Source of the DNA: Pristiophorus japonicus | Taxonomy: Eukaryota | Assembly (NCBI RefSeq): GCF_044704955.1 | Contig: NC_091984.1 | Location: forward strand, 144,026,001-144,090,000 | Direction of reading: 5' to 3' | DNA length: 64,000 nucleotides | Shown: piece by piece, positions 2,757 to 29,483 of the stretch | Layout of the letters: each line of letters opens with the position of its first letter | How positions within the stretch are numbered: the first letter of the stretch is position 1 | Notes under the pieces: generated by a model | Databases searched by the model: none | Told to the model about the DNA's origin: nothing | What the model saw: the letters and a program-made list of their open reading frames with translations, nothing else | Made by a program: the position numbers and the translations under genes

Positions 2757-3628
2757 GCTGTTCTTTAACAGTTCAGTCAAATGTTTGGGTAATGGTGGGA
2801 TATAGTATCCAACACGCGAGATGTATCCCTCGAGGTTCGTAACGTATCATTGACTGTAATATAGATATGTTTGTTGTCTGAGATAGGAATTATTCTTTCT
2901 TGTGCTAACTGTGCCTCTACCTGGGGTTTGAAACAAAAGGAAGAATCTGTCAGCATTTTAGGGAGAGGTTTTAATCTGCTTGCGATCAGTTCGGTCGCAT
3001 TTACTGCCTTTGGTCAAGGTCACACAGGAATCAAAACCCTGCGTCCAATTCATTCCTGACCCGAAATCCTTCATTGTCATTTAAAAACAATCCCCACACC
3101 TCCCCTGCACTTGTGGCTAGATCCAACCACACAGACATAAATCCCTTGTTCCGCCATCCACCACTTTTCCCAACACAATTTCACCCCTTCTCTTGTTCCT
3201 GTGCTCCACCTGTTTGAGTTATTACCCAGTTTCTCCCATTCTGTGGATGCATTAACTTTTCCCCTGCCTGTTTTCTGTAACCACCACCACCCTCCCATGG
3301 GGGCAATCCCTTTACATTCCAGACAAACTCGTCTCCCCTCTCTCACCCGTACATTCCTGGTCGTGATGTTTACGCTGGGGCAGGACACTGACACCTCCCC
3401 AAGTTTACCCTCGGTTTGTCTGGAGTACTTGGTCGAATTTGACCCTAACCACCCTGGCCAGCTCCCAGTGTGAGCAGAGGCGTTTGTGCCCTTGTTGCTC
3501 CGTATGGCTCCCCCTTGAGTTACAGTGGGGCCGGTTCCTCCCATACACCCGTGTGTAAGGAATGTCTCGGTGTCTCCCCGATCTCCCAATCCTTTAATAA
3601 TAATGGCCATCCACAGGCCTATCCACAA
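2757..3628 (-). pseudogene. env-like/accessory glycoprotein gene remnant of ERV-like element 1, with a putative Ig-fold domain
   Basis: ORF 3077-3628 has a hydrophobic N-terminus (WIGLWMAIIIKGLG), five N-X-S/T sequons and the pattern VRVREGRRVCLEC...WWWLQK...EQGIYVCVV. Frameshifted continuation to about 2757 (MNWTQGFDSC; AVNATEL...SSFCFKPQ...VNDTL) adds more sequons. It lies directly 3' of integrase behind a pyrimidine tract. Confidence 0.6.
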
Positions 3629-3853
3629 CGTCCACCTCCTCTCGTACCCTTGGCTCGATTCGCTCCAAGAAAGACAAAAATGAAAGAAATACCTTTGCTC
3701 TGTGGGGCCTCCCCCTCACAGATCCTCCTTCAGTTATTCACAGATGTACATAACTCCTTTTTACAATCACTGCTTCCCTCTCCTTTTATCCCGATGCTTG
3801 GGCTTACAGAGGCTCGGGGGTGGAGATGGAGGAGGTGTCCAGGGCACCCTAGG

Positions 3854-6800
3854 TCACAGTACCTGACCACTCCACCTTACTGCTCCGTCCCTTACTTCTC
3901 CATCCTCATCATCCCACAGTATTGGTGGGAGGCTTACACTGATCAAACTCATTATTGTTCCTGGGGCCTTCGCCCGCTTTTTACTTTTCTCTCCGGGGTT
4001 GTACAGCTTACACTGGTTTATATGGAACCATTTTATATGTTTTGGCAGCTGGATCGCGTACACCATAGGGCTTGCCTTGTCTACAATGCTATATGGTCCT
4101 TTGATCAATGGTTCAAATGCCCCTATTCTGGTATAATTCCTGACCATTACCTGATCCCCTACCCTCCATTCCTGTGTAACCCGGGGTTCCAGCAGCAGTT
4201 TATTCTGCTGGTGCTGCCTGCCCATATTGTGAGCTTCTTCCCAATGCAGCCCCTTCAGAGTACCATACAGATCTCTGACAAACCTGTCCCGTGTGATCTC
4301 TTTAACCTGCGTTTCAGTCAGGACTGGTGCTAGGATATGGGTCGGGGTCATCATTAGTCTCCCTGTCATCATGGCATGTGGGGAGTGTCCCGTACTCTGA
4401 GAGAGACTGGCTCAGTGGTTCATCAGTATTCGGGGTCGGGTCTCACCCCATTTCTTCGGGGTATCTCCTTTCTCCTTCCTAAGCCTCTCTTTTAAGGTCC
4501 GGTTTGTCCTCTACTGGATCTAACGATTGGGGATTATACGTCACATGCCATTTCCCCTGTATCCCTAACAGCTTTAGGGTGGCCTGCATTACTGCTCCGG
4601 TGAAATGACTCCCTTGATCTGATTCCACTATCAGGGGCAGTCCCCATTGAGAAAATACGTCTAGCACCAGAACCTTTGCTGTGACTATCGCGGTGGCCCC
4701 GACATGGAAAAGCTTCAACCCATTTTGTAAAGAGATGTATTAACACCAAGCAATATTTATTGCCTCTGCCTGAGGTGGGCAGTGGCCCAATCGAATCTAT
4801 CTGTATAGACTGCCATGGCCCCTCTACCCCCCTCGTGTGTCCCAACGGAGCCTTCCTCGGTGGGGGTCTGGATTGTTTGTGGCACATACCAGACAATTCT
4901 GGCAATAATCCCTGACATCACTTCTAAGCCCGGGCCACCATCCCATGGCTTCTACTTTATTCCACATTGTTTCTGGCCCTGGATGTCCAGCTCCTGGACC
5001 CACATGCACCAGCTGCAAGAATTCTTCCCTGCATTGCCCTGGCACGATCCAACTATCTTCCTTGAACAACATTCCTTGCTTTACTGCTCTGTCTGCAGCT
5101 CCCAAAGGTCCCGCTACAGACTTCCCATCTATCTTGTCCCTAATCGCTGCTCTAAGGTCAGCATCCCGTAGCTGAGCCTGTTTTAAATCAGGCGGCAATG
5201 GTACTTCTTTGGGCCCCTCTCTGCCTGTTACAGCCATGATCTGTCCACAGTGACATGGGTCCCAAGGTGTCCCTTCTCCTGCCCCTGTTTTAGCCAGTGT
5301 GTCTGCTTTCTCATTGCCTTCCCACTTGGGCTCTATCTTAGAGTGTGCTTTGACCTTTTGGATATAGTAACCCTTCTGGTCCGTACCCGTGACATCCAAA
5401 ATGACTTTTAACAATGGAACCATCACCAACCATTTTCCATCTGAGGACTTAAACCCTCGCCTCGCCAATATGGCTAAATACTCTGTACAGGAGTTAGAAA
5501 TGAACATGGAGTCTGAACATATCGTATAGGGAGTTGGGAATTCGTTCGGGTGTGTGACTACATACGCTACTGCTGCTAGCTCGGTCTGCTGCGTACTTAA
5601 AGTGTTGGGGATTTTATGGCTTTCTCTATCCCTGTCTCAGGATCGTAAGTCCCACAGCCTGTCTTTCTCTCTCTGTTTATGACTGAACTGGACTCATCTA
5701 CATAGACGTCCCTGCCTGCCGGGTGATCTCCTGCTCAGAATCCCACATCTACATCCCACACTCCTTCCACTGAACACACATGAGCTGCCCCCGGATAAAC
5801 CAGGCTCGGGGCGAGCTTTGGTTCTCCTGGCCTCTCGACCTTCAGGTCTAACTGAGTCAGCAACAATGTCCAGCGGGCAATCCTGTTACTGCTCACTGTC
5901 CCACCTTTCATTCTACCATCCAATAACATTTGTGTTGTGGTGTGACAGGTCAGTAAAGTTACTGTAGCTAACCCTGTGAGCGACCGAAAATGCTTCACTG
6001 CCCAACATATTACTAACAGATGTCGTTTGCAATTCGAAAAGCTCTTTTCTACTTCTTTAAGAACTCGGGAGACGTAGGCCACCGGTCTCAGCTTGCTGTG
6101 TCGCTCCTGGAGTAACACTGCACTCAAACTGTCCCCAGTCATTGCTACCTCCAGACTAAAGTCCTGGTCCCCATTAACTGCTCCCGATGCTGGTGCTGTC
6201 TGTAACACCTCTTTTAACCAAATGAAAGTTTCCTGACAACTCTCACTCCATTCCCACTCTACTCCTTTCCGAAGAAGCCTCAACAAAGGAGCTGCCATGG
6301 TTACATATCCCTTTATGAATTCCCTGCAGTAACCCGTTATTCCCAGGAAAGACCTTACTCCAGACACGTCCTTAGGAACAGGTAGTTCCTGGACTGACTT
6401 TCTCTTAGCTCGATCTATGGCCCTTTCTCCTGCCCCAATGGTCAAACCTAGAAACTGCACCTCCTCTTTGCCTATTTGAGCTTTCTGGAGATTTACTTTA
6501 AAACCTGCTTCTTTCAACAAATGCAGTAACTCACTCAATAATGGCCCGTGGTCCTCCGCACTTTCGGAGAATAACAACAGGTCGCCCACGTATTGGACCA
6601 ACCGATCTGGCTGACTAAAACCGTTTAATGCCTCGGTCATACTCTGGTGAAAGATCGAGGGACTGTTGTGAAACCCTTGTGGAAGACATGTCCACATATA
6701 CTGCTGACCTTTAAAGGTAAAGGTAGATTTATACTGGTCCTCCCGTCTCAGGGGAATGGACCAAAACCCGTTTGAAATGTCCAGCACGGTGAAAGTTGTT

Positions 6801-7660
6801 GTGGCCGCAGGGATACTCCCGATCAAATCCGCTACCACTGCTACCGTGGGCGCACAGGCTGGAATATTTTTATTCAGGATTCGGTCATCTACCGTGGCCC
6901 TCCATGAATTATCGGGCTTCTTTACTGGCCATAGGGGTGAGTTTACATGTGTGGCTATGGTCCTCAACACACCTTGATCCACCAGGGAATTTATAGCAGT
7001 TTCCAAATCCCTTTCTGCTTCCCGGAGAAAATTATACTGTTTCTGGGGTCGTGTCATCGAATCCCCATCTATCTTCACCTCTACCCTAGATGCTATCCTG
7101 CAATCGGGCTTGTGCATTGCAAACGCATCCATATTCTCCCGTACATACCCTTGATGCTGGGCCGGAATGTTATCGACTAATCGTTCTCAGTCATAACTCT
7201 CTTTCGGCTTCATCGTGCAGGTGCTGCCTTTGTCTGTACTGTCCCTGGGAATCACTACGATCTCTCCCATCTTATCTGCATCAACTGCCCCCCATAGACA
7301 ATTGTTTTCCATATCCACTGTGGTGTGGTGTGCCAACATGTAGTCGGCCCCGAGAACTCCCGAACCGGGCTGTTCCCACTTCATTAAAATGCCCTCCCAT
7401 TTCATTATGTTCGGCCCTAACTCTATGGTTAAGGGTTTCCACACTGCCCCAGCCTGCTCATTACCCGTAAAACCCACCAGTGTAAATGGTACTCCGCTCA
7501 ACCACGGGGAAGTGGTCGGATTCGGTGAGTGGACAACCGTGCTAGAGGCTTCTGTATCTACTGGATCCCTTCCCCTAACTGTTTCCACCTTCACATCCAC
7601 ACATGGCCTGCCCCACCCATCATATATGAGCAGACACAGGTATTCTGGCTGGGTGCACCG
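3854..7660 (-). pseudogene. pol: pro-pol of ERV-like element 1 (protease, RT, tether RNase H, RNase H, integrase), frameshifted
   Basis: ORF 7187-7600 (VDTEAS, mutated protease site). ORF 5735-7132 (RT plus tether). RNase H VYVDESS at about 5700 and KVKAHS...GNEKADTLAK. Integrase HVGPGAGHPG...[24 protein letters not shown] and FEPLIKGPY. Confidence 0.9.
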
Positions 7661-9261
7661 TCACAGTGGGGGTGCCGACACATTGGGTCCCTTTTCTCCC
7701 ACTGCTGCGTCCAGCTTTCCTCCACCCATGCCCATAACCTGCTGTAATGCGGCCACTAAAACCTGCACTGGGTCGTCGGCTACCTTCTTCTGGTCTTTTC
7801 CTGCCTCAGCACCTCGTACCCTGGCTTCCCTCCTTTAGAGAGCCTACAATCCTTGCTCCAGTGTCCCAACTTCCCACAGTTAAAACATTCACCTTTCGAT
7901 CGACCCGCATTACCTCCCTCTTGTCTCCATTCTTTCTATGGCCTAACCTCTCCTTTTACTTCGTGCACCTTCCCGTTTAGTTTCTCCTCCTCCCCTTGCC
8001 TAGACTTAAAGCGAGAGTTCATCTTCTCAGCACCCCTGCCTCTGTATTCTGGAGATGGTCTGGGTCAAACCATGCTTCAACCTTTGCTCTGAGCCATGGC
8101 AAACTGTTACCATTACGGTTCTCAGCCAATGGTTCCTGGGTTCCCCTATTAAATCTGCCCACACCAGATTTCCTCCAGCAGCCCTGAAATAAATCGCCCA
8201 CAGTCTGTCTGCAAACGTATCGGGTGATTCGTTTACTTGCTGCCTAGTCTGTTCTACCTGCCAGAACGGACTACCCTGACTGTACCCGAGCACTGCCATC
8301 ATTTCCTCCTTTAAGCCCTGTGGGGTTCCTGCACCTAACTTGGTGGCTGTCGACAAGCTCTGATAAAGCTTCCCCTCCAGCGAGAGCAGTGTTAGCTTCA
8401 CTTTCTCCTCCTCGCTGCAGTTATTGATACCCGCTATCTGCTCTATATTAGTAAAATGAACAGAGGCATCTCCTCCTTGCTTTAACTGTACTACACCCGT
8501 CAGCATCTCCTGCAGCTGAAGCGGTGTGTATGGGATCACTAGTCGCTCTGTAATGGTGCCGGACCACCATTTGGGGGGGTGGGCCGAATTTCTGCTGTCT
8601 CAAAGGACACATCGGTTTCAGGGGTCCCGGTGCCTCGGGAGCCGGCCGATGCTCGCTATACTCGGGCCCATCATCTGACTCTTTCCCCTCTGGATCCCAA
8701 TCTTCCTCGCCGGTTCCGGGTGCCCTGAGACAAACCATCCCTTTGGTCCCGTCTAACTCTGCCGTTAATTGGTGGATCTTTTCCTTACAAGGTCCGTGAT
8801 CTGCTCTCGCATAACCCTGTTTCTGAGCTACCTGATAGGCTATCGACTCTCCTGACCTGGTCCTCTGCCTCTTTGGCTCTTTCTAAATGCCTTTCACTTT
8901 GTTCAATGTGGGTCTGCTGCTGCTTTTTGCACTCGGTCACCTGGCATTGTAAATACTCAAAGTGATTCCGTGCCGTTTCTTCCTTCCTACTCTGGTCCTG
9001 CCTTTCCTTCTCCAAACTGCCTACCTCACCCTTTAACCCTTTATTCTCCTCCTCCAGCTTTCCTACCCTTTCTCTTAACAGTTGTGTCTGCTTCTGCAGG
9101 CACATGAGCCAAACCGCCTTCTCTTTTGACCCTTTGTGGTTACTACTGACTGTCCACTCTGCCGCTTTTTCTTGCGGATCCCCAGAATGCAGCATTTCCC
9201 GTGCCCATGGCTCTGAAATGTCCAATTTGTTGCCTATATATGCAGCTACCTTAGCCTCCAT
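7661..9261 (-). pseudogene. gag: gag of ERV-like element 1
   Basis: N-terminal coiled-coil ORF 8785-9261, proline-rich PMCPLRQQKFGPPP, capsid-like QQVNESPDTFADRL and zinc knuckle CFNCGKLGHWSKDC (about 7846-7887). Ends at TGA 7661-7663. Confidence 0.8.
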
Positions 9262-10099
9262 GGACTACCTACGACTGCTCTAGCCATGGGCTCTACCGCG
9301 TTTTGCTGCGGTGAGTCCATTTCCAGTGCCTCTGGCTGAGAAATTCTCCCTGACTACCTTGGTGTCCCCTGAGACCACCTCGCAGTGACCTGCGGTTCCT
9401 GTTACTCTGGCTTCTCTCTGTGGCTACCATAGTCGACCCGAGACTACTCCGGCCTGTCAGAGACTTTCTCTCCTGGTCCTCTAGTCGCCCTTGAGATCAC
9501 CCTTGGCCTCCCTGAGACTATCAGCGACTACTATTGACTTTTCTCTGTGACCACCCCAGTCAACCGAGATTACTCCAGACTATCCGAGACTGTTTCTCTC
9601 CTCAGGCTGCCCTGGCCGCCTGTGAGATTATCCCTGGCCTCCCTGAGACCCCTGTGCAGACTACCTGCGATTACTTCTCCCAGTGGCTGCCCTAGTCAGC
9701 CGGAGCTCTTCGGCTACCCTGGTCCCCCTTGAGATTCCCTTGGTCTCCCTGAGACCCCTTCGCAGACTACCTGCGGCTTTCTCGGTGGCTACTTTAGTCA
9801 ACCCGGGATTACTCCAGCCTAGCCAAGACTGTTCCTTCCTCTGCTGGCTGCCCTAGCTGCCCTTGAGAGTACAATGGTCTCCCTCAGACCACTGAGCAAC
9901 TACCTGAGACTTCTTTTCTCAGTGGCTACCCTAATCGACGGAGACGACTCAAGCCTATCAGACCCTGTTACTCTTCTGGTCACCCTAGCCGCCCTTGAGA
10001 AGATCCTTTTCGACTACCTTATCCGACCTTAGACATATCCAAGCCTCCCTCAGGGTTTTTGCCCTGGTATGTGTCCGTGATACTATTCCCAAAGCCGAG

Positions 10100-10117
10100 G
10101 TCCTGCCGCGGTCACCA
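10100..10117 (-). promoter_or_regulatory. Primer-binding site of ERV-like element 1 (tRNA-Ser-like)
   Basis: Minus strand TGGTGACCGCGGCAGGAC directly after the LTR end (...CCTACAGAAA). Matches the element 2 PBS at 17 of 18 positions. Confidence 0.8.
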
Positions 10118-10118
10118 A

Positions 10119-10782
10119 TTTCTGTAGGTAGTTTGTTTTTCACTCTACTCTGATTCTTAGACCTGGGAACTTGTAGTGGGAAAGGACAACACGTGGCACA
10201 ACATTTAGGCTTCACCCAGTGTCAGTTTTATTGTGCACAAAACCGTCAAAAACTATAGGACTAGACTTCTGAGAGAAATCGACTGAAACAATACAATTGC
10301 CCTTCCTGGCTGTAGCTATTGTAGGTTTGTGGTCATTGGTTCCGTGACCGGTTGGTTCTTCTTCTGGCCGTTCTCTGCAGTGCTGTTCCTTCTGTGTACG
10401 TTCCGTACAACATGTCTTTCCGTCCGTTTGTTTGTTTGTTCTTTCGACCTGTGTCCATCTGTACATGTGTCCTTCTACTTCTCCTGTGTGCTTCTTCTTC
10501 CGTCTGTTCCTGTCCTTCTTCCATCTCCTGCTGAGCTGCTTCTAGCTCACATATTTATATCCAGGTTATGACTGATCTCCCGCCACTGCGGTTTCTGATA
10601 AAGTGCATCAATACATTGTTTTGTGGTCCCCTTGGTTGATTGATTACAATAATGAACTCGTCTGTTTTCCCATTTGCACACTGAGTCTGCAAGGCTCAAG
10701 TTGATTTCTCATCTTAACACCTCATCCTAAAAAATGTGCAACTGTTGTGGTTCCTTTGTTGTCAGGTCCTTTTACATACCTG
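10119..10782 (-). repeat. 3' portion of the 5' LTR of ERV-like element 1
   Basis: Minus-strand TATA (GGATATAAAT, about 10554-10563) and AATAAA (about 10227-10232). Terminal CCTACAGA is shared with the element 2 LTR end. Probably continues beyond the Harbinger insertion (13676 to about 13830-13890). Confidence 0.65.
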
Positions 10783-13675
10783 GGGCTAGAACCTCCTCTT
10801 TTATTGCCTGTTTAATGCCCACTTAACACCCATTTTACCACTGAAATGACATATAATGCCCAGATATCACCCATTTTGGTACAAAATGGAAACTGACGGG
10901 CTTTTTTAGGAGACTTGTCGCCGAGCGTTACTTTCCCAATGGGCTTAACGCAGAGAATAAATATTATCGCCCACCTACTTTTTTGGGGCGGAATCAGCAG
11001 AATGGGCAAATTCAACGCCCATATTATCACCCAGCGTTACTTTCCTCATGGAATTAATGCCGAGATTCAACATTAACACCCGGCGACTATTTTTTGTCAT
11101 GAACAGCATATTTACCCAAAGTAACGGCCATGGAGATCATCCACCGTCAATTTCACCACCTCGTACACATATCGCCCACAATATCGCTCGCTCAAAAAAC
11201 CGCCCACAAAAAGTGGAACTAACCAGAACGAATCACAGCGTTATGGACGCCGTGATGTAGATCACATGTCGCGTCCTTTCACCTCGACAGAGTTCGGATG
11301 TACTCTGCAGGTCGTTGGAGTTGATGTGAACATCTCTGAAAACATCTTGACCACACTGTGACCGATTGGAATTGAAGAGGTGTGCTCGTCGGGACATTCT
11401 TTGCTTGTGTGCAATTGGTGACAGACAGAGAGCTACTGCAATGGGGCCTGTCCTTTCTCACCCTCTCTTGGTGACCAAATATATGCAGCAGACTCAACAT
11501 CGCTGAAGGAACGCTACATTGCATTATGTGCCCAATGTACGAAATAACGGACAGATGAGGAGGACCAGACGTTACACCCCCCGCAAGTACAAGGAGAAGC
11601 ATTCTTACCTCGACTTGCCTGACACCACCTGCCTTCGGAGACTGCGCTTCCACAAAGAGGTTATCACTGAGGTATGCCAGCTGATAAGGGCAGGCCTACA
11701 GCCTGGCAGCACCATCAGAACTGCACTGTCCGTCGAGGTCAAAGTCACCACGCCACTATCGTTCTATGCCTCGGGTTCTTTTCAGGCCACAGCTGATGAC
11801 ATTTGCAGACTTTCACAGCATGCCACACATTGCTGCATTAGACAGGTCACTGAAGCCCTGTACGCACACAGGAGGGACTTGATCAGCTTCCCTATGACCA
11901 GGGAGGCACAGAGTGAGAGGGTTCGAGGTTTCTCCAGAATTACAAACTTCCCCAAGATGCAGGGAGCGATAGACTGTACGCACATCGCGATGTGAGCAAC
12001 TTTTCAGGATGCTGAGGTTTTCAGGATTCCACAAGGGATTCCACTCCCAGAATGTCCAGCTGGATGTCGACCACCAGCAAATTATACTGGCAGTGAATGC
12101 TCAATTTCCGAGCAGCATCCATGATGCGCACATCCTGCGTGAGAGCACTGTATCTGACTTGTTTAACAATGAGACACAAGGTCAATGCTGGACGCTTGGG
12201 GACAAAGGATATGGCCATGCCACCTTGCTGATGTTCCCCCTGCGTGACACCCACACCGAGGCCGAGAGGTGCTACAATGAGAGCCACAGAGCAACTCGCA
12301 ATATCGTGGAGAAAACGTTGGATTGCTGAAGCAGCGCTTTAGATGCCTGGACCACTCATGAGGCGAGCTCCAATACCACCCTGAGCAGGTAGCTCAATTC
12401 GTGGTGATGTGCTCCATGCTACACAACTTGGCTATCAGGCGGGGACAAGAATTGCCTGATGAGCCTGACAGTCCATCTCACCAGAGAGAGGAAGAGGAGA
12501 ATGAGGAGGTGGACGCAGACATCGGGTCAGACAATCAGGCTGACGCTGAAGACATGCCCCGCCCTTCTGTAGACCGCATGAAAGGGCCCATGGTGGCATG
12601 ATAGCTGCAAGAGCCTTACGTCAGGAGCTCATCAATGATCGCTTTGCCTGAAAGAACGTTGGTGTTATTTCCACGGCTGACACACTGCTGGGTGTGCAGG
12701 TCATAAATCAATTGTGGGCATCACCTTGCTGACCATTAAAGTTTACTTTGCTTGAAGTTAAGTGTGATTATATCCTTTGATGTTAACGAATCACAGCTAT
12801 CTGAGCCAATGTGCTGCAAGGTTTTGTTAAATAAAAAACATTTAAACCGAACATTAGTCTGAAATCATCAGTAATTCTGTACAAACCAACCCTTCCCCTG
12901 AGCCACCCCGCTTCTCCTCCCCAACTCTACCCCTTCCCCTTCCCCTCCTGACTCCAAGCTGCCTGGCCACCGAGATTCTCAGGCAATGCTTCATTGGGAG
13001 GTGGGTGGTGACGGCCGAGGCACTGCTTGTCGGAAACGCGAGAGGACGGTCCCAAGGTGGGAACGTGCTTCGAGCCAGAAGCGAGATGTTGCTCCTGGCT
13101 CTCATGTGTGGTTGGCAATGGGGTTGCGTCACCTTGAGGTGCAGTGCGGCACTCCGGGACCACTGGGAGCCCTCTGCCACCAGTGTTCCTGGCTACCAGC
13201 TCCAGGGCCTCCTCCATCCCTTACATGTTATATGTTATTTGTGGGACAAAAACTCGATGCTAACTATGTTCTTGGTGCTTAGTGCGCTTTTTGCTGCTGG
13301 TGAATCTCCCTCGTGCCTCCCACAACAGCCAAACAAACACACACCACAGACACACATGCTTTCAGTGCCTCTGAGCTCCCTCTCTCTCCGTCTCCTCTTC
13401 TGCGTTTGTCATGGTGACCCTTGACCTCCAGAATCGCGGGAATGGACCATTGCCATGCTGTTGCTCAGGACGGCCAAACTTTATAGCAGAAGGTCAGAAA
13501 ATTTAACACTACCGCCCATTTGATATCGTTCGCGGTAACGCACATTTTCAAAGATATAATCGAAGTGTTTTGAGAATGGGCGAGAAGCCGACGATCTGAA
13601 AACCCTTTTTTACCGCCCACACTGGAAATCACGCCCATTTTTGGGTGCTAAGCTCAAAAGTGGAGGTTCTAGCCC
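10783..13675 (+). mobile_element. PIF/Harbinger DNA transposon with 20-bp TIRs
   Basis: Left TIR GGGCTAGAACCTCCTCTTTT; right end reverse-complements to GGGCTAGAACCTCCACTTTT (19/20). Flanks CTG/TTG form a near-perfect 3-bp TSD. Contains a transposase remnant. Confidence 0.9.
11519..12650 (+). pseudogene. Harbinger (HARBI1-like) DDE transposase, disrupted
   Basis: Motifs CLRRLRF, LSFYASGSFQ, QGAIDCTHI, KGFHSQNVQ, SSIHDAHIL, LGDKGYG, YNESHRATRNIVE and CSMLHNLAI. Stops and frameshifts present. Confidence 0.9.
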
Positions 13676-14825
13676 TTGGTGTCTCCAGTGAGCTTGTGTT
13701 CCCACCCTGGTCAATCAAGTTCAGGGCCTCACGTAACAACTCCATTCTTGTTATGCATGAAGTCAGTTTTGGTCCCTGACCACAGCATGTCCTTAATTGT
13801 CCAGCTTCATTCCAAAAGCTGGTATTAAGCAATTTTTAGTTCACGGTCTCCTTCTGTGCTTTTCTGAAGATTGGTAACCTTATACACAACACCGCCCTCT
13901 CCCACCCCCAAAACCACCCCTCTCCCAACCCAACACCGCCCCCAACTCCCAACCCCAACACAACCCCTCTCCACCCCACAACACCCACCTTAAACTGACA
14001 CACACAGCAGGCAGGACTTATATGGGCACACGACCCTCCGCGGGACACATCATCACTGAGGGCTCATATCCCCTGGCCTCACAATGGAAACCATGGCAAC
14101 ACAGAAGCCACAGGGGTGGACCAATCACAGCAAAGTGCTACAGACTGTGCATTTGTGCCTGAGAGAGTAACGAGGAGAGAGCTTCAATCTATTTAACCCT
14201 TCGATCCCTGGCTGCCGTCTGAAAACTACGCCCGAGTTGGCAGAGGCAGTGACTACATTATTCCCGCTGTTATTCTGCGCCCTGCTCATTCATCTCAACC
14301 CCTGTGTTAATGTTTCTCTGCTCAATGGTACTGCTCCCCACGGCAAATCCAACCAGTGAGATTTCTCAGCTGGGTGTGAAACATGGAGAAGCAGAGATGG
14401 GCATGGACTGTGTGGGGGCACTAAAGGACCCACTGGCTCCGACCAATAATAAAACAGTAGGTAAGGACACGGTGAAAAGGGGGGATGGGTCCAGATAATG
14501 GACCTGGGCAAGTCCGACAAGGAGGCTGTCCTGCCGGCCAGAGCGATGGTGAAATACGCTTGCCTCAGCCTGCCTGGCATTGTGGAAGGGGAGGCAGCTC
14601 CGATCCTTACCGTCCCAGACTGTCAGCCAATCACCGTGGCTTCCTCCTTCGGAGAGCTGTTCAAATCTCCACGGGTTTCACAGCTGCAGCTCACAGACAC
14701 GCTGGTGAGCAGATTGTTGGGGTGTTTGCTCTACACTTGTCCAGTTGCTGTGTGTCACGGGCATGGGCAACATTACAATTGGAGCCCATTACTGGTCTCA
14801 TAAAGTGACGGGCACATTGATTAGT

Positions 14826-15512: not shown

Positions 15513-15843
15513 TGGGGGAACAAGGAGAACCAGAAGGAGGCGCTGTCGAGCCTCTCCAAGAACATAATCCAGTTGAGAGCAGACACCATCCAACTGTTTG
15601 TAGACAAAACCCACGCAAGGATTCAACGGCTCTGCGATGCCGTGTGATAAAGTGCGGGCTGAAGCGCTCAGTGTGCTGGGGAACTTGGCCATGGGGGGAA
15701 TCGGAGGGTCCAGGTGTTGCTGCACCTGGATGGAAACAGTGTTGAACAACAGGTCCTGTTGTTCAACACTGCGCTCGGTATTCCCACGTATTGGATCTGC
15801 TCAGTCTTCCTCAGTCACTGAGAATGATCCAGGGGAATCCAAC

Positions 15844-19200: not shown

Positions 19201-21317
19201 AGACCGCGTGGATGAACTACAACAATTGTACATCCCTGTCTGGCGTAAAAATAAAAAAGGGAAGGTGGCTCAACCGTGGCTATCAAGGGAAATTAGGGAT
19301 AGTATTAAAGCCAAGGAAGTGGCATACAAATTGGCCAGAAATAGCAGCGAACCCGGGGACTGGGAGAAATGTAGAACTCAGCAAAGGAGGACAAAGGTTT
19401 TGATTAGGGCAGGGAAAAGAGAGCACGAGAGGAAGCTTGCAGGGAACATTAAAATGGACTGCAAAAGCTTCTATACATATGTAAAGAGAAAAAGGTTAGT
19501 AAAGGCAAATGTAGGTCCCCTGCAGTCAGAATCAGGGGAAGTCATATCTGGGAACAAAGAAATGGCAGACCAATTGAACAAGTATTTTGGTTCGGTATTC
19601 ACTAGGAAGGACACAAACAATCTTCCGGATATAAAAGGGGTCAGCGGGTCGAGTAAGAAGGAGGAACTGAGGGAAATCCTTATTAGTCGGGAAATTGTGT
19701 TGGGGAAATTGATGGGATTGAAGGCCGATAAATCCCCAGGGCCTGATGGTCTGCATCCCAGAGTACTTAAGGAGATGGCCTTGGAAATAGTGGATGCATT
19801 GACAGTCATTTTCCAACATTCCATAGACTCTGGATCAGGTCCTATGGAGTGGAGGGTAGCCAATGTAACCCCACTTTTTAAAAAAGGAGGGAGAGAGAAA
19901 ACAGTGAATTATAGACCGGTCAGCCTGACATCGATAGTGGGTAAAATGATGGAATCAATTCTAAAGGATGTCATAGCAGCGCATTTGGAAAGAGGCGACA
20001 TGATAGGTCCAAGTCAGCATGGATTTGTGAAAGGGAAATCATGCTTGACAAATCTGGAATTTTTTGAGGATGTTTCCAGTAGAGTGGACAAGGGAGAACC
20101 AGTTGATGTGGTGTATTTGGACTTTCAGAAGGCTTTCGACAAGGTCCCACACAAGAGATTAGTGTGCAAAGTTAAAGCACATGGGATTGGGGGTAGTGTG
20201 CTGACGTGGATTGAGAACTGGTTGTCAGACAGGAAGCAAAGAGTAGGAGTAAATGGGTACTTTGCAGAATGGCAGGCAGTGACTAGTGGGGTACCGCAAG
20301 ATTTTGTGCTGGGGTCCCAGCTGTTTACATTGTACATTAATGATTTAGACGAGGGGATTAAATATAGTATCTCCAAATTTGCAGATGACACTAAGTTGGG
20401 TGGCAGTGTGATCTGCAAGGAGGATGCTATGAGGCTGCAGAGTGACTTGGATAGGTTAGGTGAGTGGGCAAATGCATGGTAGATGAAGTATAATGTGGAT
20501 AAATGTGGGGTTATCCACTTTGGTGGTAAAAACAGAGAGACAGACTATTATCTGAATGATGACAGATTAGGAAAAGGGGAGGTGCAACGAGACCTGGGTG
20601 TCATGGTACATCAGTCATTGAAGGTTGGCATGCAGGTACAGCAGGTGGTTAAGAAAGCAAATGGCATGTTGGCCTTCATAGTGAGGGGATTTGAGCACAG
20701 GGGCAGGGAGGTGTTACTACAGTTGTAAAGGGCCTTGGTGAGGCCACACCTGGAGTATTGTGTACAGTTTTGGTCTCCTAACTTGATGAAGGACGTTGTT
20801 GCTATTGAGGGAGTGCAGCGAAGGTTCACCAGACTGATTCCCGGGATGGCGGGACTGACATATCAAGAAAGACTGGATCAACTGGGCTTGTATTCGCTGG
20901 AGTTCAGAAGAATGAGAGGCGATCTCATGGAAATGTTCAAAATTCTGACGGGTTTAAACAGGTTAGATGCAGGAAGAATGTTCCCAATGTTGGGGAAGTC
21001 CAGAACCAGGGGTCACAGTCTAAGGATAAGTGGTAAGCCATTTAGGACCGAGATGAGGAGAAACTTCTTCACCCAGAGAGTGGTGAAACTGTGGAATTCT
21101 CTACCACAGAAAGTTGTTGAGGCCATTTCACTAAATATATTCAAAAAGGAGTTAGATATAGTCCTTACGACTAGGGGAATCAAGGGGTATGGTGAGAAAG
21201 CAGTAATGGGGTACTGAAGTTGCATGTTCAGCCATGAACTCATTGAATGGCGGTGCAGGCTCGAAGGGCCAAATGGCCTACTCCTGCACCTATTTTCTAT
21301 ATTTCTATGTTTCTATA
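16271..21317 (+). mobile_element. Near full-length CR1 LINE (tandem-repeat 5' UTR, ORF1 zinc-finger/SGNH esterase, ORF2 APE-RT), inactivated
   Basis: About five 70-bp 5' repeats. ORF1 CSSCTMWE...CGKC and GDSIVR...CLPGA. ORF2 LNARSI, MGDFN, YLDFQKAFDKVPH and FADDTK. 3' (TATGTTTC)n tail. Premature stops. Confidence 0.95.
18105..18618 (+). mobile_element. 5'-truncated CR1 3' end nested in the endonuclease region of the host CR1
   Basis: QRRFTRLIPG...GYGEKAGMGY plus 3' UTR and tail interrupt GGVALL|VKEEINAIVRK. Confidence 0.9.
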
Positions 21318-21842
21318 GCATTATTGTCCCTGGTGCAGGATGGGGGAGAGGTGAGGAACATAACATTATTGGTCCTGGGGTGTGGGGGGATGGGGGAGAG
21401 GAGGGGGCAAGGTGAGGAACATACCATTAATGTCCACAGGGGGAGAGAGGAGGGGGATAGGTGAGTAACATACCATTTATTTCACCGTGGGGGGTGAAGA
21501 AGAGGTGAGGAACATATCATTAATGTCCCCAGGGGAGGGGGTGGTACGGCATTGGGAGAGGGAGACCGACAGGGAGTAGTGTGGAACATACCATTATTGT
21601 CCCCAGCGGGGGAGAGGTAGAGAGAGAAGTGAGGAACATATCATTATTGTCCACAGAGGGGGAGAGGGGAGGAGAGGTGAGGAACATACCATTATTGTCC
21701 ACAGGGGGGGAGAGGAAGTGGAGAGGTGAGGAACATACCATTATTGTCCACAGGGGGGCAGAAGTCGAGAGAGAAGTGAGGAACATACCATTATTGTCCC
21801 CGGGGGGGAGGGGCGGGTCGAGGAGAGGGAGAGGTGAGGAAT
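21318..21842. repeat. Purine-rich satellite, right part
   Basis: Same GAGGAACATACCATTATTGTCC unit as 15844-16262. Confidence 0.85.
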
Positions 21843-22943
21843 GGTAGCACCAGCTTTCTGGCCATTTTTATGAGCAATACTTTAAATCCTTAAATGCAAA
21901 AGCCCAAGAAAGAACTGTCCTGTTTGGCGAGCTTGTGGGGGTGGCACTGAGGTGCATTCATATACAACCGGACATTTCACACTGACAGGCTGGGTGGCAG
22001 GGAACCCAGGCCCATTGATGTCATCACCATCTAAAGTGATTACTGGGAACAATATCCCGAGAGGTAACTCAGAGACACTGTGCCTTCGCATTATTAAAGC
22101 ACAGTCACCACTCAGTCCCAACCCAAACTGGTGCAAGGCAGGAAATGACCGGCCCATTGTCTTCCAGGAGATAAGCCGGTTAAGCAAGATCGGTTTGTGA
22201 TCGAAACCCATTACCTGCTAATGGGGGCCATCAACTCAGGAAACGACAGACATCCAGTAATCAGCACCCATTGTCTCTCCAGAGGCAAGGCCTGGGAGCG
22301 GGAAAACAAAATATCATTTTTCACAAAGATTTCAAAGGCTACGAGGCACTCCAGGCCACGGTGGGGGGCGTCCAGACAGATCACCGGAGTCAATCCATCG
22401 GTCAGTATTGGCGGGAGGAAAGGTGATGGGTTTTGGGGATATAAGGAGCCGCTTTGCAACGGTCTGAAGTTATCTTCATTCAATGAAACACCGCTAGATG
22501 CTGAACACTGCTCTTCAATCCTCACCAACTGACCTCGACTCAAACTGGAACTTGGATTCTGCATCGGTGGTACGGAACCAGGAGCGAGACGTTCAGAAAG
22601 AAGCTGCAAGCAAGACAACGGGCAATCCGTGTGAGCATATTGCCTGCACCTACACATCCGCAAGACCACTTAGCTGTGTGAGGGGGTGATTGTAAGTCCC
22701 AACCAAACCCAAGGGGTTTACTGCTGGGGGGTCCTGTGTTAGTTTATTTCACGGGAGGGTTCTTTTATTAATCCATGGTAACTTAGCACGGCAGGGCTTA
22801 TTGGACAAGCCAGGGTTGTACTGTTTTGCACTGTTTATGTGTGGTGTTGTTAATCTTATAAAACATAATACGGTTGAGCCCGAATAATCCCTATCATCCA
22901 GAACTTGCATTTTCGGTACGCCCGAGAAAAGCACCTACAGATA
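21843..22943 (+). repeat. 5' LTR of element 2
   Basis: Direct repeat of 28384-29483 except for a replaced central block. TATA-like GGGATATAAGG at about 22436. Confidence 0.9.
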
Positions 22944-22944
22944 T

Positions 22945-22962
22945 TGGCGACCGCGGCAGGAC
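22945..22962 (+). promoter_or_regulatory. Primer-binding site of element 2 (tRNA-Ser-like)
   Basis: TGGCGACCGCGGCAGGAC, 1 nt after the LTR. Resembles the complement of vertebrate tRNA-Ser 3' ends (TGGCG...GGCAGGA). Confidence 0.8.
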
Positions 22963-22998
22963 GATAAGTTTTGTGTCGGATCATAGGCAAGACCCGAA

Positions 22999-24620
22999 AT
23001 GGAGGATAGGATTTCCTCCGACGTGTTCAATAAGATTAACGTGTCTCAGCCATGGGTGCTGGCGATGCTGTGCTCTGAGAATCCCCAGGATAGGGATGCA
23101 GAGTGGACAGGTAGCAGGGATCACAGCAAATCAAAGGAAAAAGTGATTTGGCTCCTGTGTCTGCAGAAGCAAGTTCAACTGTTCAGGAAGCAGGTTGAAA
23201 AGCTCGGGAATGAGCTTAAAGGGTCTGAGGATAGGTCACACATGAGGGAGATAGTCGGGAGCAGAGTATTAGAGGAACTGCACGGGGAAAGGCAAAAAGA
23301 CGTGAGCAAGAGGAGACCTCCCGTAACATGGTGGAATACCCACAGTGTCAGGTTACAGAGGCCAAGGTAAATGAGCAGGCCCTACGGGAGGAGAATGTGA
23401 GGCTAATAGCGAAAGCTGGCAGCTTGGAGGGTCAGCTAAGGGATATAAAGATAGTTTATAAAGTAGCCAGGAGTAGAGGCTATGAGGAAACAGATCACGG
23501 ATCCTGTAAGGAAAGGATCCAAAAATTGAGCCAAGCCTTGTCTGGAGCCAGAGGTTTGGCCTGTTTAATGTCACCGGGGGAAACCGGGGTAGACTGGGAC
23601 AAGGAGGGTCAGGAGCCTGATGATAGGGCTCAGGATAGGGAAGTCCGACCGTTGCCGGAAGTACCACCGACACCAATGTGTCCTCTGCGGCAGCAGAAGT
23701 TTGGTCCACCCACACCAAACGGTGAGCAGGACCCACTGCAGAGCGATTACGTGGTCCCGATCACAACCCCTCAGCTGCAAGTCACGCTAGCAGGGACCCC
23801 TCAGTTCACTTTATGGAAGTAGAACAGGTAGGGGGGGGTCAACGGATGTAGTGAGGGCGAGATCAACAGGCTGATTCTGTCCTCCCTTGATTGGAGATTG
23901 TATCAGGGCTTATCCGCACCCACAAAGTGAGTAGAAGGCACCATAGAGGGGCTGAAAGACGAGACCCTGAGGGCCATGGGGCATACCCAGGGGAGCCTGT
24001 TCTTACAGGTAGAACGGTTGAGACAGCTGGCCGGCGAGGCACTAGATGCATTCGCGGACAGGTGATGGCCTGTGTACGTAAAGTCAACTGGAGGGACGCT
24101 CGACTGCACGCAGTTGATAGGGACCCCAGGAATCACTGGCTCAGGGTCCTTGTGGCCAACAGCTTGCCAAGAATCAGGGCCAGAGCAGCAGCGTAGTTTG
24201 ACCCCAAGAACCTCGCCAATATGGAGACAGGCATGCTCAGAAAGCTGAGTCCAGCCTTTAAGGCCGATTCCGGGAAAGAGGTCAAATCAAATGGAAGGAT
24301 CCACGAAATGAAAGCCAGTGAGGGTAATAGGAAGGAATGGCGACAGGAAGGGGTTAGTACCGACAAGTCCAGGACTTGTTTCGGGTGTGGGAAGCCGGGA
24401 CACTGGAGGCGAGGCTGCCCATTCCCAAAAGGGGAAGGGGGCCAGACCGAGGGGGTCCTCCAGTGCAAAAGCCGCGTGTTACAGAGGGGGAGGGGACGAC
24501 CGACGAGTCATTCGAGTTTCTGGTGGCTGCCCGACGGAAGGTTATGGGAAGAACAGAGACAAGTTAGATGCTGCTGTGAGCAGGGAAATGCCCATCACAC
24601 CCACATGCCCCCCACCCTGA
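22999..24620 (+). pseudogene. gag: gag of element 2
   Basis: MEDRISS...KEKVIWLLCLQKQ is homologous to element 1 gag. Contains PMCPLRQQKFGPP and CFGCGKPGHWRRGC. Frameshifted; ends at TGA 24618-24620. Confidence 0.85.
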
Positions 24621-27600
24621 CGAGAACCCGCCCAGCCTGAGTACCTGTGTCCACTCACGTACACTGAGTGGGGCAGTCTCTGGGTAAAGATGTGGATGGA
24701 GATGGAGCAGGGGAAATATTTGGTGAGCACCGGGGCTTCCAGCACGGTGGACCATTCAACAAACCCGACCAATTCACCCTGGTCTAGCAGGGTCCCATTC
24801 AGCCTCGTGGGGTTCATGGGGAATGAGCAGGCTGGGGCAATCTCAAAACCCCTGGCCACAGAACTAGGATCTCTCCATAGCACGTGGGAGTGTGTCCTGA
24901 TGCAATGGGAACCGTCCGGATCGGGAGTCCTTGGGGCTGACTTTATTTTGGCCCACCGAGTGATTGTGGTTTTAAGGAATCACTGCCTATGGGGGGCAGT
25001 GGGTTCAGATAAAGCCGGAGGTGACAGTGATCCCAAGAGATGGGGAAGGAAGGGGTAGTGTGGTAGTATGGAGCCCAAGGGGAATTACGGCCTAGAGCAG
25101 CTGGTCTGTAATACCCCGGCCAACTATCCGGCGAACGTGTGGGACAACCTCGCCTCGTTCACCACTCACCAACACGACTGTGGCAGGGTGACGGGGTAGA
25201 AGTCAGGGTACAAGGGGACCCCATGTCACGACCACAGAAACAGTACAGCTTCCCCAGAGAGGCAGAAGCCGACTTGGAGACGGCACTGGGATCCCTGGTG
25301 GAACAGGAGGTGTTGAGGCCGATAGCCAGCCAGGTAAACTCACCACTTTGGCCGGTTACGTAGCCCGACCAGTCGTGGAGAACCACCGTGGACTATTGGG
25401 TGCTCAATAAAAATATCCCAGCCTGCTCCCACAGTCGCGGCTGTTGCTGACCTCAGAGGGAGCATTCCAGCGGCCGCAACCACTGTCACAGTGCTGGATA
25501 TCTTCATTGGGTTCTGCTCCATTCTCCTTAAACGGGAAGACCTGTACAAGTTTACCTTTACATTTAAAGGGAAGCAGTACACCTGGACATGCCTTCCCCA
25601 GGGGTCCCACAACAGCCCCTCCATATTCCACCAGTGTATGGCAGATGCACTCAAAGGCTTCAGCCGACCCCAGCAGCTAATCCAGTATGTGGACGACTTG
25701 CTTTTGTTCTCCGTGGAGCGGGAGGAGCACAGGCCACTGCTGGATGAGCTGTTGAGGCTGTTGCGGGAGACAGGGTTTAAAGTGAACCCAAAGAAAGCCA
25801 GATCGGCCGGGAGGAAGTCAAATCCCTCGGGCTGACCGTAAGGGCTGGTGAGCGAGCGATCGATGAGGCAAAGAGGAAGGCAGTACAGGAGTTACCCGCC
25901 CCCAAGGATGTAACCGGGGTAAGATCCTTCCTGGGACTGACAGGGTAATGCCGGGACTTTATAGAGGGGTACGTCGCCACGGCAGCCCCTCTGCTTCGGC
26001 TCCTCCGCAAGGGAGTCGGGTGGGAGTGGGACCAGAACTGTCAGGAAACGTTCAGCCGCCTCAAGGAGAATTTACAGATGGCGCCCGCACTGGGAGCCAT
26101 TAACAGGATTGAGGAATTCTTTCTGGAGGTAGCAGCCAGCGGGGACAGCTTGAGCGCGGTGTTGCTCCAGGAGCGGAACGGCAAGCTCGACCCGTGGTCT
26201 ACTCCTCAAGGGTTCTCACTGAAGTAGAACAGGGATACTCTAACTGTGAGAGGCATCTCCTAGCCACGCACTGGGCCGTAAAGTGCTCCCAACTCTTTAC
26301 AGGATCATCCCTGATCGTTCTACTGACCCAACACACCCCCAGCCAGATGTTGTTAGACGGGAGGATAAAGGATAGGACAGTAAGCCGTGCCTGCATTGCC
26401 CGCTGGACTTTATTGCTCTCGCAGATGAATCTGAGAGTGCAGAGGTTGACCGAGCCAAAGCTGGCTGTGAATTTCATCTACCCAGGGACGGCCCATGCAT
26501 GTACTGTGGAAGAGGTGTGGGACGTAGATGTGGGATTCCGGGCCAGGATACACCCGACAGGCCGGGAGATCTACGTAGACGGGTCCAGTTCGGAGGTGAA
26601 TGGGAAGCGTCTCACTGGGTGTGGGATTTATGACCCCACAGCTAAGGTAGCGAGAGCCATTAAACTCCCCAGCACCCTGAGCGCTCAGCACGTCAAACTG
26701 TCGGCGGTGGAGTACGTGGTTATCCATCCCATCGAGTTCCCCACCCCCTATACCATCTGTTGGGATTCCATGTTCACCTGTAATTCGTGCAATGAGTACT
26801 TGGCCATCTGGGCCTGGCGCGACTTCAAGTCTGTAGACGGGAAGCTCCTAGCAACAGCACCGTTGCTAGGGGGAATGTTGGAGGTTACGGGCACCCGGGG
26901 AGATTACTACACACACAAGGTTAAAGCCCAATTCAAAGACAGAGCCCAAGGAGGAGGACAACCAAAGGGCAGACGAGCTGGCCAATCAGGGAGCCAGGGA
27001 AGGGGTATTCTGGGTTCCGTACAGAGCAGGTCCAGTAGCAGCAATCCGGGACAAGGGAGGCACACAGCGGGTAGCTTTGGCCCCGCACTTAAAGCAAGTC
27101 CAAGCACAGTATCCCATCCTTGTACAAAGGGGGAACGGCAAACCGGTAGAGGGTCCCAACAAGTATGGCTTAGTCCTGGTGGACGGATTCTCCCAGTGGG
27201 TGAAGGCCTTCCCATGCCGAGCAGCCACGGCACTAGCAACAGCAAGGATCCTGGTGAGGGAAGTGTTCTCCCGATGGGGACTGCCACAGGTCGTGGAGTC
27301 TGACCAAGGGAGCCATTTCACGGGTCAGGTGATGCAGGCCACCTTCAAACATCTGGGAATACAAGGGAAGTGGCATGTGGCTCACAACCCCCAATCATTG
27401 GGGATTGTGGAGCACATGGACCGGACACTGAAAGAAAGACTGAGGAAGGAGATAGTGCCGTTCCCAAAGAGATGGGACGAGGTCCTGCCATTGGCATTAA
27501 TGGGTGTCCGGGCCAGCCCCTCCAGAAGCACAGGGTACTCCCCACATGAGGTCATCACCGGGAGGGTTATGTGCACCCAACCCATGTGTTGGTGCCGGTC

Positions 27601-28138
27601 CTCACAGAAGCTCAGGTCAGGGAGGTAAACTGGGACAGGTTTGTCCAGAATCTGTTTGAGGTTTTAAAACAGATTCACTGGCAGGCAGCCAGTAACCTGG
27701 GGAACCAGCACCGGGAAACATCGGTTGCTGCTCGAGCCCCGGAGAAGCCACGAGTGGAAAGTGGGAGACCAGGTAATGTTCAGGAACTGTGCCCGAGTGG
27801 GGGCATTCGAGCCACTGTACATGGGGCCTTATAACATCGTAGATAAGGCCAGCTCCATGGTATATGCAGTCAGACTCCGGAAACGCACAAAATGCTGTCA
27901 CATCAACCAGTGTAAGTTGTTTAACCCCGAGGGGGGGAAGACAAAGGCAAAGAGAAACCAGGGCATGATAATGAGCCTGGTGGACACGGGTCTTCCTCCC
28001 GTGGTGTGGGACGATGATGATGACCCAGAGGGCGGGGCAGTAAGGAGAAACAGTCAGATACCACGGCATAGGGCGCCGTGGACGCCTCCTTACTCACGGG
28101 CCATGAGCCGCAAGAGGCCCCAACAGGAGAGATTTTAA
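24621..28138 (+). pseudogene. pol: pro-pol of element 2, disrupted; integrase HHCC domain deleted
   Basis: YLVSTGAS (mutated protease site), QYVDDLLL, tether RNase H YSNCERHLLA, RNase H IYVDGSS...WDSMF...HKVKA, integrase [10 protein letters not shown] and FEPLYMGPY. Confidence 0.9.
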
Positions 28139-28383
28139 CCGGGGGCACTCGATAACGCAGAACGAACGGTATATATATGTAAATAACGAAAGCCCGACCT
28201 GTGGAGGGAAAAAGCGCTCACTCACAGGTGGTGCTGTATCTTTTTGTCTTAATCAGGAAATCAGAAGAAACAGGAGCCCGGGTGTAATTGATCAGTAATG
28301 GACCCACAATGCACCTCCCGCAGCAGAAGACGACGGAATTCGAGATATTTCTGGTTTTGGTGACAAAATATCATCAGGGGGAT

Positions 28384-29483
28384 TGTAGCACCAGCTTTCT
28401 GGCCATTTCTATCAACAAAACTTTAAACCCTTAAATCCAAATCCCCAAGAAAGAACTGTCCTGTTTGGCGAGCTTGTGGGGATGGCACTGAGGTGCATTC
28501 ATATACAACCGGACATTTCACACTGACAGGCTGGGTGGCAGGGAACCCAGGCCCATTGATGTCATCACCATCTAAAGTGATTCCTGGGAACAATATCCCG
28601 AGAGGTAACTCAGAGACACTGTACCTTTGCATTGTTAAAGCACAGTCACCACTCAGTCCCAACCCAAACTGGTGCAGGACAGGAAATGGCCGGCCCATTG
28701 TCTTCCAGGAGATAAGCCGGTTAAGTAAGATCGGTTTGTGATCGAAACCCATTACCTGATAATGGGGGCCATCAACTCAGGAAACGACAGACATCCAGTA
28801 ATCAGCACCCATTGTCTCTCCAGACACAAGGCCTGGGAGCGGGAAAACAAAATATCATCTTTCACAAAGATTTCAAAGGCTATGAGGGGTGGGGAGATTG
28901 TCCAGACAGATTACCGGAGTCAATCCATCGGTCAGTATTGGCGGGAGGAAAGGTGATGGGTTTTGGGGATATAAGGAGCCACTTTGCAACAAGCTCCAGT
29001 TCAGGAGGAAGAAAGCTCCGGAAAAAGCCCAGGACAAAGCTCAGGAAAACCCAGGAAAAATCCCAGGAAAAAGCTCAGGAGCGAGACGTTCAGGAAGAAG
29101 CTGCAAGCAAGACAACGTGCAATCAGGGTGAGCATATTGCCTGCACCTACACATCCACAAGACCACTTAGCTGTGTGAGGGGGTGATTGTAAGTCCCAAC
29201 CAAACCCAAGGGGTTTAGTGCTGGGGGGGTCCTGTGTTAGTTTATTTCACGGGAGGGTTCATTTATTAAGCCGTGGTAACTTAGCATGGCAGGGCTAATT
29301 GGACAAGCCAGGGTTGTACTGTTTTGCACTGTTTATGAGTGGTGTTGTTAATCTTATTGAACACAAAACGGTTGAGCCCGAAAAATGTATGTCCGAGTCT
29401 GATCTGTCCATATAATCCCAATCGTCCAGAACTTGTAGTAGGAAGTGCGTTTTCGTTACGCCCGAGAAAACCACCGACAGACA
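28384..29483 (+). repeat. 3' LTR of element 2
   Basis: Starts TGTAGCACC after the PPT and ends CCGACAGACA. Confidence 0.9.

Follow-up and report, generated by a model that had tools for sequence, protein, structure and literature searches.

Two dead proviruses of a probably SnRV-related endogenous retrovirus family in Pristiophorus japonicus, and the predicted F-type envelope of their related copies

The stretch of DNA considered here, hereafter the window, comprises 64,000 nucleotides of the cartilaginous fish Pristiophorus japonicus (assembly GCF_044704955.1, contig NC_091984.1, positions 144,026,001 to 144,090,000), and it holds two related elements bounded by long terminal repeats (LTRs). 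Element A lies on the minus strand at approximately 2759-10776 and runs from a candidate 5' LTR through a primer binding site (PBS), gag and pol to an env remnant, while element B lies on the plus strand at approximately 21843-29479, flanked by two LTRs of about 1.1 kb. A preliminary description, made from the sequence alone, had set the outer limits of the pair at 2757 and 29483; the first of these is corrected to 2759, where A-derived sequence stops, and the second to 29479, where the 3' LTR of B most likely stops. The features of both elements, and of the Gypsy element that adjoins A, are as follows.

Element A, 10123..10776, minus strand: candidate 5' LTR, with TGTA...TACA ends in the sequence; upstream end uncertain.
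Element A, 10100..10117, minus strand: PBS for tRNA-Arg(TCG), one mismatch (from the sequence).
Element A, 7763..9264, minus strand: gag, frameshifted, with coiled-coil N-part, capsid region and CCHC knuckle (tblastn to related-copy Gag, motif scan, Pfam coiled-coil).
Element A, 3854..7660, minus strand: pol, with protease, reverse transcriptase (RT), tether, RNase H and integrase with GPY tail (Pfam, list of open reading frames, tblastn map, motif scan).
Element A, 2759..3715, minus strand: env remnant, with N-terminal part, internal deletion and short C-terminal piece, then the break into Gypsy.
Neighbour, 412..2758, plus strand: ordinary Ty3/Gypsy element, its pol fused to the A env remnant (Pfam RVT_1 and intact-type RT_RNaseH).
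Element B, 21843..22939, plus strand: 5' LTR, about 1.1 kb (93-94% identity to 28384-29479 in two blocks).
Element B, 22945..22962, plus strand: PBS for tRNA-Arg(TCG), exact (from the sequence).
Element B, 22996..24630, plus strand: gag, frameshifted, with one CCHC knuckle at 24377 (Pfam, tblastn map, motif scan).
Element B, 24633..28138, plus strand: pol, frameshifted, with GPY tail (Pfam, tblastn map, motif scan).
Element B, 28376-28383, plus strand: polypurine tract.
Element B, 28384-29479, plus strand: 3' LTR, with the end at 29479 most likely.

Pfam recovers the pol domains in the same order in the two elements, namely RVT_1 (A 5735-7183; B 25338-25832), RT_RNaseH/RT_RNaseH_2, which is the tether (A 4827-5636; B 26113-27300), RNase_H PF00075 (A 4537-4917; B 26870-27625) and integrase (A 3857-4411; B 27668-28135). 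The tether is without its first catalytic Asp in both A and B, whereas the Gypsy neighbour retains that residue. The motif scan places a single CCHC knuckle in each (at 7887 in A) and a GPY tail in each (4102 and 27821), and the two PBSs differ at one of 18 bases, so that the architecture set out in the preliminary description is sound. The motifs quoted there are, however, drawn from both elements: A alone has exact matches to LDISNGFWSIPL, the LPQGFHNSP stretch, KVKAH and GN.KAD.LAK, and B alone to YVDD and YVDGSS. The internal DNA of A and B is 65-67% identical, and their RT cores are about 71% identical in protein. A host tRNA-Arg(TCG) 3' end complementary to the PBS occurs as a pattern at six places in the genome; ARAGORN, run on five of these loci, calls Arg(TCG) in two of them and, in the remaining three, reports an unassigned tRNA at the matching position.

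Both copies are dead, because A carries stops, frameshifts, altered motifs and an env without cleavage site or fusion core, and B carries frameshifts and has neither the integrase zinc-binding region nor an env. In A the damage to pol consists of in-frame stops, frameshifts and altered catalytic motifs, and the env remnant, which is 44% identical to residues 26-249 and 45% identical to residues 639-681 of the Env of a related copy, has lost its cleavage site and fusion core to a large internal deletion and retains an Ig-like domain at about 3080-3445. The candidate 5' LTR of A matches both the 5' LTR region of a related copy and the 3' LTR of A paralogues at about 70%, and the long leader of A (9408-10000, minus strand) is composed of degenerate repeat units that measure about 120 and 240 bases. 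The junction with Gypsy is different in the A paralogues; in three of them (L094-L096) env runs on to the transmembrane region and the 3' LTR, and is then followed directly by a fragment of B consisting of the integrase end and LTR. In B the zinc-binding region is deleted near 27150, no env follows pol and the related-copy Env gave no match within the element, and no target-site duplication (TSD) was found. A frame of 104 residues inside the B LTR (21886-22197) gave no Pfam or Atlas match and was not counted as a gene.

Much of what can be said of the intact virus is drawn from related copies, among them a sister subfamily in the same genome (L031-L037, L043, L101-L110) with an RT 79-80% identical to that of A. 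In the genome match searches, for which scores were computed for the best candidates only, stop-free frames of 1420-1423 residues hold 21 of the 148 scored RT matches. The LTR pairs are 99.4-99.8% identical in all five sister copies checked, and a 4-base TSD is present in four of those five; for class III endogenous retroviruses (ERVs) the TSD is said to be 5 bases long (PMC4299795). The family has thus been active recently, and the two copies in the window are older relics. At the junction of gag and pol, A (7663-7658), B (about 24619-24624) and the sister copies L034 and L036 all have TGA followed by a codon starting with C (4/4); the corresponding stop in snakehead retrovirus (SnRV) is TAG. 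TGA with a C-starting codon is a context known from alphavirus readthrough sites.

The placement of the RT was examined with references fetched by motif, comprising SnRV (L051, recognised by its RT in a published alignment), three lokiretrovirus (loki) loci (L052-L054, whose RTs match published teleost loki as judged by eye) and 36 exogenous retroviruses, of which subsets were used per tree. The early impression that the RTs are closer to retroviruses than to the Gypsy element next door is borne out, as an RT query from a related copy is 80% identical to A and 75-83% identical to the three pieces of B, against 26% to the Gypsy neighbour. The A RT is 48-52% identical to named 'NYNRIN-like' Pols of frogs and coelacanth, 41% to SnRV, 34% to loki and 30-37% to foamy and gamma viruses. 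A and B share the RT signature LPQG with SnRV, foamy and gamma viruses, and loki RTs have PFG(Y/L) in 24 of 24 sequences of a published alignment (Dataset S3). Four RT trees, rooted or drawn with Gypsy, separate loki and Gypsy from A, B, SnRV, foamy and gamma viruses; in those of 73, 36 and 27 rows loki is the first to diverge, and support for the Retroviridae side is 100/95, 100/99 and 100/99 respectively. Both elements fall on the canonical Retroviridae side, outside the gamma/epsilon, delta and foamy clades, and the Gypsy rows form a clade of their own at 100/99-100 from which A and B are absent, in keeping with the deep-branching, dual-RNase-H, non-Gypsy character first proposed for them. 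In approximately unbiased tests (p-AU), a clade of loki with the family was rejected for RT plus tether (0.0009) and for RT under a mixture model (0.003), whereas a clade of foamy viruses with the family, although not recovered in the 36-row tree, was not rejected (0.26); the RT-plus-tether tree places the family beside loki at the weak support of 83/88.

A hand count against A over the first 138 RT columns of a printed supplement gives 76 for CmiERV lineage I, 65 for SnRV and 48 for Loki-Lch. A search of viral contigs with the A RT found no match, and a search for the loki motif found none in the viral contigs and none in the shark's own genome, although only the exact pattern was sought and this is no proof of absence. 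On these comparisons the RT seems to be neither loki nor unclassified, and to come from a basal, SnRV-related ERV, a type already known from cartilaginous fish. Xu et al. 2018 (PMC6001957) describe the SnRV-related group as clade Huo, present in all major vertebrate lineages, and Han 2015 (PMC4422223) describes a CmiERV lineage I of the elephant shark that clusters with SnRV. Sharks, about whose coverage the preliminary description was unsure, were included in the loki screen of Wang and Han 2021 (PMC7947760), which gives loki in 0 of 6 chondrichthyan genomes.

In the related copies, pol is followed by a frame of about 800 codons that corresponds to Env, with an RQKR site, long helices, a cysteine-rich beta region and a single C-terminal hydrophobic span. 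Relatives of this Env numbered 44, and eight of the ten looked up carry names, from sharks, a skate and frogs. A monomer model of residues 265-746 (pLDDT 65, pTM 0.47) matches, in Foldseek, the F proteins of respiratory syncytial virus, human parainfluenza virus 3, Newcastle disease virus and henipavirus with E down to 1.7e-11, and, in a BFVD fold search, those of arthropod Mononegavirales and baculovirus also. In VIA, eleven F or foamy Env chains score Z 8.5-11.3 and unrelated chains 5.3 or less; the top F match has Z 11.3 over 332 aligned residues, with a root-mean-square deviation of 21.3, a large value that reflects the long helices of a monomeric model, and foamy Env has Z 8.5-8.6. Atlas agrees with an F-type reading of this Env. 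A profile of the same protein matches loki Env at prob 97 (260 columns) and SnRV Env at prob 88 (285 columns), and the sequences point to homology with both. No TLV_coat match was given by Pfam, and a sequence search of the PDB with this Env gave no real match. We consider the Env of the related copies to have a predicted fold of the paramyxo/pneumovirus F type, and, the fold being loki-like, an early guess that the env would be F-like was therefore a good one, as far as the prediction goes. In BFVD the same model also matches the Env of walleye epidermal hyperplasia virus 1 (E 2.4e-7) and that of walleye dermal sarcoma virus (E 1.1e-4), a hint that epsilonretrovirus Env may be F-type too.

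The N-terminal domain of this Env has a Cys-Trp-G.Y.C pattern and gives Pfam Ig_3 at E 0.002 in relatives, and Atlas rates the domain of A as Ig-like at 0.94, with Ig-clan matches in 10 of 10. The head is likely, if weakly supported as, Ig-like in its modelled form. Gamma-type Env is known to have an IgV-like receptor-binding domain (RBD; Hotzel 2024), and modules of this kind are known to be accommodated by F cores (Fernandez et al. 2024, PMC11468914); because of these two precedents a receptor-binding module is, by analogy, the likeliest role for the head. It has no similarity to an Ig light-chain V segment found elsewhere in the window (prob 0.1, low-depth alignment), and local capture of the head is therefore not supported.

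We think it probable that A and B are two dead proviruses of one ERV family, with an RT on the Retroviridae side of the tree, where the basal SnRV-related grade (clade Huo) is its most likely position, and with an Env that, from the related copies, is predicted to be a fusogen of the paramyxovirus F type, its head being likely an Ig-like receptor-binding domain. A number of observations weigh against this assignment. The trees held just three loki loci, and neither an Odin nor a CmiERV row; a loki clade is not rejected for RT under LG+G4 (p 0.067, 36-row tree); and sisterhood with SnRV is neither rejected nor supported (p 0.45 for the 36-row RT tree and 0.17 for RT plus tether), the base of Retroviridae being an unresolved fork. 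The RNase H falls with loki, foamy viruses and the frog and coelacanth Pols (97/95), away from SnRV and gamma viruses, while the integrase forms a group with loki and with basal Pols from fish and amphibians (91/94, not starred; CGIN1 absent from the tree) and its clade with SnRV is rejected (p-AU 0.001). As to the envelope, none of 30 Env alignment members passed Pfam Fusion_gly; the F fold rests on related copies, since A has lost the fusion core by deletion and B has none; the Ig-like head is poorly modelled (pLDDT 52, best Foldseek E 0.02, VIA Z 6.0), the top matches of the model being Ig domains; and the Pfam Ig matches are below the curated cut-off.

The groupings of RNase H and integrase are leads of moderate strength, because the domains are short and the branches long, and as clade Huo is defined on RT, an integrase that does not match SnRV lowers the likeness to that virus and not membership of the grade. 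The mix of modules nevertheless appears unusual, with an RT on the Retroviridae side, an RNase H and integrase that group (at that moderate strength) with loki, and an F-type Env. In this respect the preliminary characterisation of the pair as loki-like or unclassified was half right: it does not hold for the RT, given the LPQG signature, the trees and the known clade, and it does for the RNase H, the integrase and the Env fold, and trees of the kind it had called for, with Retroviridae, the three loki and Ty3/Gypsy, set the RT and the RNase H apart in just this manner.

Such a change of affinity along the genome, from the Retroviridae-side RT to an RNase H, integrase and Env that go with loki, might be thought the mark of a recombinant in which an SnRV-related RT and Gag were joined to a loki-like RNase H, integrase and Env half, and env swaps are common in fish ERVs (bioRxiv 2021.11.23.469661). 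However, the same loki-like integrase recurs throughout the basal grade, in a 12-row group that takes in Pols of frog and coelacanth and several that are unnamed, and the Env of SnRV is homologous too, so that shared ancestral modules need fewer events than recombination, and we regard a recombinant origin as unlikely. A true lokiretrovirus lineage with a divergent RT, the first in cartilaginous fish, would accommodate an integrase 44% identical to loki in the related copies as compared with 37% to SnRV, the integrase and RNase H trees, an Env profile that scores higher against loki than against SnRV, and a tether as well conserved as in loki; yet the RT motif is unlike all 24 loki RTs, the loki clade is rejected in two of three tests, the Gag has a CCHC knuckle where none was found in the partial loki Gag frame scanned, and the exact loki pattern occurs nowhere in the genome, all of which make such a lineage very improbable. 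An ordinary Ty3/Gypsy retrotransposon that gained its second RNase H independently is scarcely credible, for although the tether scores as RT_RNaseH, a Gypsy-type family, and the integrase group adjoins Gypsy integrases, the strongly supported Gypsy RT clade excludes A and B, the related copies have an env, and the Metaviridae combination of an RT inside Gypsy clades and one catalytic RNase H is not found here.

Of the described systems closest to A and B, CmiERV lineage I (Han 2015) has a cartilaginous host, the same RT motifs, about 55% RT identity (138 columns, hand count), a tether plus RNase H, and a coiled-coil Gag with one CCHC; its integrase tail, read by eye, is GPF. Unlike the family of A and B it has a gamma-type Env with an immunosuppressive domain and CX6CC (by eye) and a PBS that is not Arg(TCG), and it is therefore not the same family; gamma-type Envs on SnRV-related Pols have been reported by Chen et al. 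The SnRV-like clade is also treated in Naville and Volff 2016 (PMC4977317). SnRV itself is the best-scoring named exogenous virus for the A RT, and resembles the family in the single stop between in-frame gag and pol, the coiled-coil Gag with one CCHC and the homologous Env, but differs in the rejected integrase clade, in an RNase H across the 97/95 branch, and in an Env with no Pfam Ig match. Its PBS (L051) we take to be of the Arg type. Foamy viruses differ from the family, the Gag of which has a CCHC; we know of no such knuckle in foamy virus Gag. The foamy RBD is, moreover, inserted between subunits, whereas the head of the family is N-terminal and Ig-like; the likeness to foamy Env and to paramyxo/pneumovirus F ('class Ib' fusogens, PMC11468914) lies in the predicted Env core fold.

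Lokiretroviruses (Wang and Han 2021) share the tether plus RNase H, an RNase H group that includes foamy viruses, a similar integrase and an F-related Env, and differ in RT clade and RT signature and from the CCHC-bearing Gag of the family. They may also carry an smc gene; the Gag of the family has a coiled-coil N-part. Odin retrotransposons, the RT of which is sister to loki, have no env and cnidarian hosts, unlike the env-bearing family of A and B, and ERV4 (Chong et al. 2014, PMC4299795) has neither a Gag zinc finger nor a GPY/F motif and makes a 5-base TSD, where A and B have CCHC and GPY and the related copies a TSD of four bases. The closest Pols in the databases are unnamed or 'NYNRIN-like' entries from frogs and coelacanth (P0002, P0003, P0005, P0006), so named by automatic annotation and not as a retrovirus family, and one of them (P0002) has an Ig-like stretch at its end, after the integrase; the portion of the NYNRIN paper available (PMC9447858) makes no mention of loki or sharks. 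The closest Env-like proteins, from sharks, a skate and frogs (P0138, P0147, P0149, P0157, P0183), likewise carry automatic annotation only.

With regard to age, the LTRs of B differ by a Kimura two-parameter distance of 0.045 and 0.057 in two well-aligned blocks and 0.073 overall, which at 2.2e-9 or 2.2e-10, both rates used by Han 2015, would correspond to roughly 11 or 110 million years; the estimate is rough because of gene conversion in the duplicated region. That region is a large, many-copy Ig light-chain V cluster: the window has an open V segment, followed by a recombination-signal-like stretch, at 52380-52700 (minus strand), and of the 69 genome matches of the segment, 68 fall on unplaced contigs or within the same 5.5 Mb of C8. 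Such a cluster, like the named Env relatives in sharks and a skate, points to a cartilaginous host. Of ten stretches fetched, four that lie nearby match the window at 96-99.8% identity over 9.9 kb that takes in the flanks, and within C8:143-149 Mb or on unplaced contigs lie 21 of 148 RT matches (92-100% identity), all 40 scored matches of the B junction and all 40 scored matches of the B LTR. Identity that includes the flanks, together with this clustering, argues that A and B multiplied with the cluster, and their near-identical neighbours are thus probably products of duplication of the Ig light-chain cluster and not new insertions. The window also has a Harbinger-type DDE transposase remnant at 11507-12329 (plus strand; DDE_Tnp_4, E 7e-17), three young CR1-like long interspersed element copies of about 94% mutual identity (16789-21217, 45264-47821 and 59210-63195, plus strand), and tandem arrays of 33-base and 20-base units at 29388-30900 and 32688-33600, the open frames of which are repeat artefacts.

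The parent virus of A and B would have primed reverse transcription with tRNA-Arg(TCG), to judge from the PBS, and would presumably have made Gag-Pol by readthrough of the single stop between in-frame gag and pol, a layout present in the related copies and in SnRV. By its motifs the second RNase H would have degraded RNA and the first served as tether, and integration would have produced the 4-base duplication seen in four of five related copies. Entry may have been by way of a class Ib fusogen, of predicted fold and cleaved by furin at the site present in related copies, and the N-terminal Ig-like domain may have bound the receptor in the manner of the IgV-like RBD of gamma-type Envs.

The RT clade is already known from a chimaera through CmiERV lineage I, and the novelty here lies in how the modules are combined, which is relevant to the origin of retroviral Env. 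In the literature searched, an Env that is F-type and Ig-headed is not described for any shark or SnRV-like ERV, Repbase and preprint supplements having been outside the search and a prior description being possible. It is tempting, if doubtful, to see the family as a living fossil of the first canonical retroviruses, from a grade just above loki that kept a loki-type RNase H, integrase and F-type Env, with the Ig head a host domain captured as receptor-binding module and the young subfamily a sign of recent, perhaps ongoing, spread in elasmobranchs overlooked by Env-motif screens. Were that so, all retroviruses would descend from an ancestor with an F-type (class Ib) Env, which would be common to loki, the family of A and B, SnRV, foamy viruses and probably epsilonretroviruses, and the gamma-type Env would be a later replacement, as in the close relative CmiERV lineage I. 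Our results do suggest that Env screens requiring a Pfam or CDD transmembrane motif (PMC10435555) may miss a large young shark family. Wang and Han (2021, 2022) saw no resemblance of loki Env to canonical Env, and so did not decide between an F-like Env already present in the ancestor of retroviruses and one acquired in the loki lineage only. In the present family a canonical-side RT travels with an Env that appears homologous to those of loki and SnRV and has a predicted F fold, and a close RT relative has a gamma-type Env; with this pairing the question of the origin of Env becomes testable by joint trees of RT, integrase and Env together with structure.

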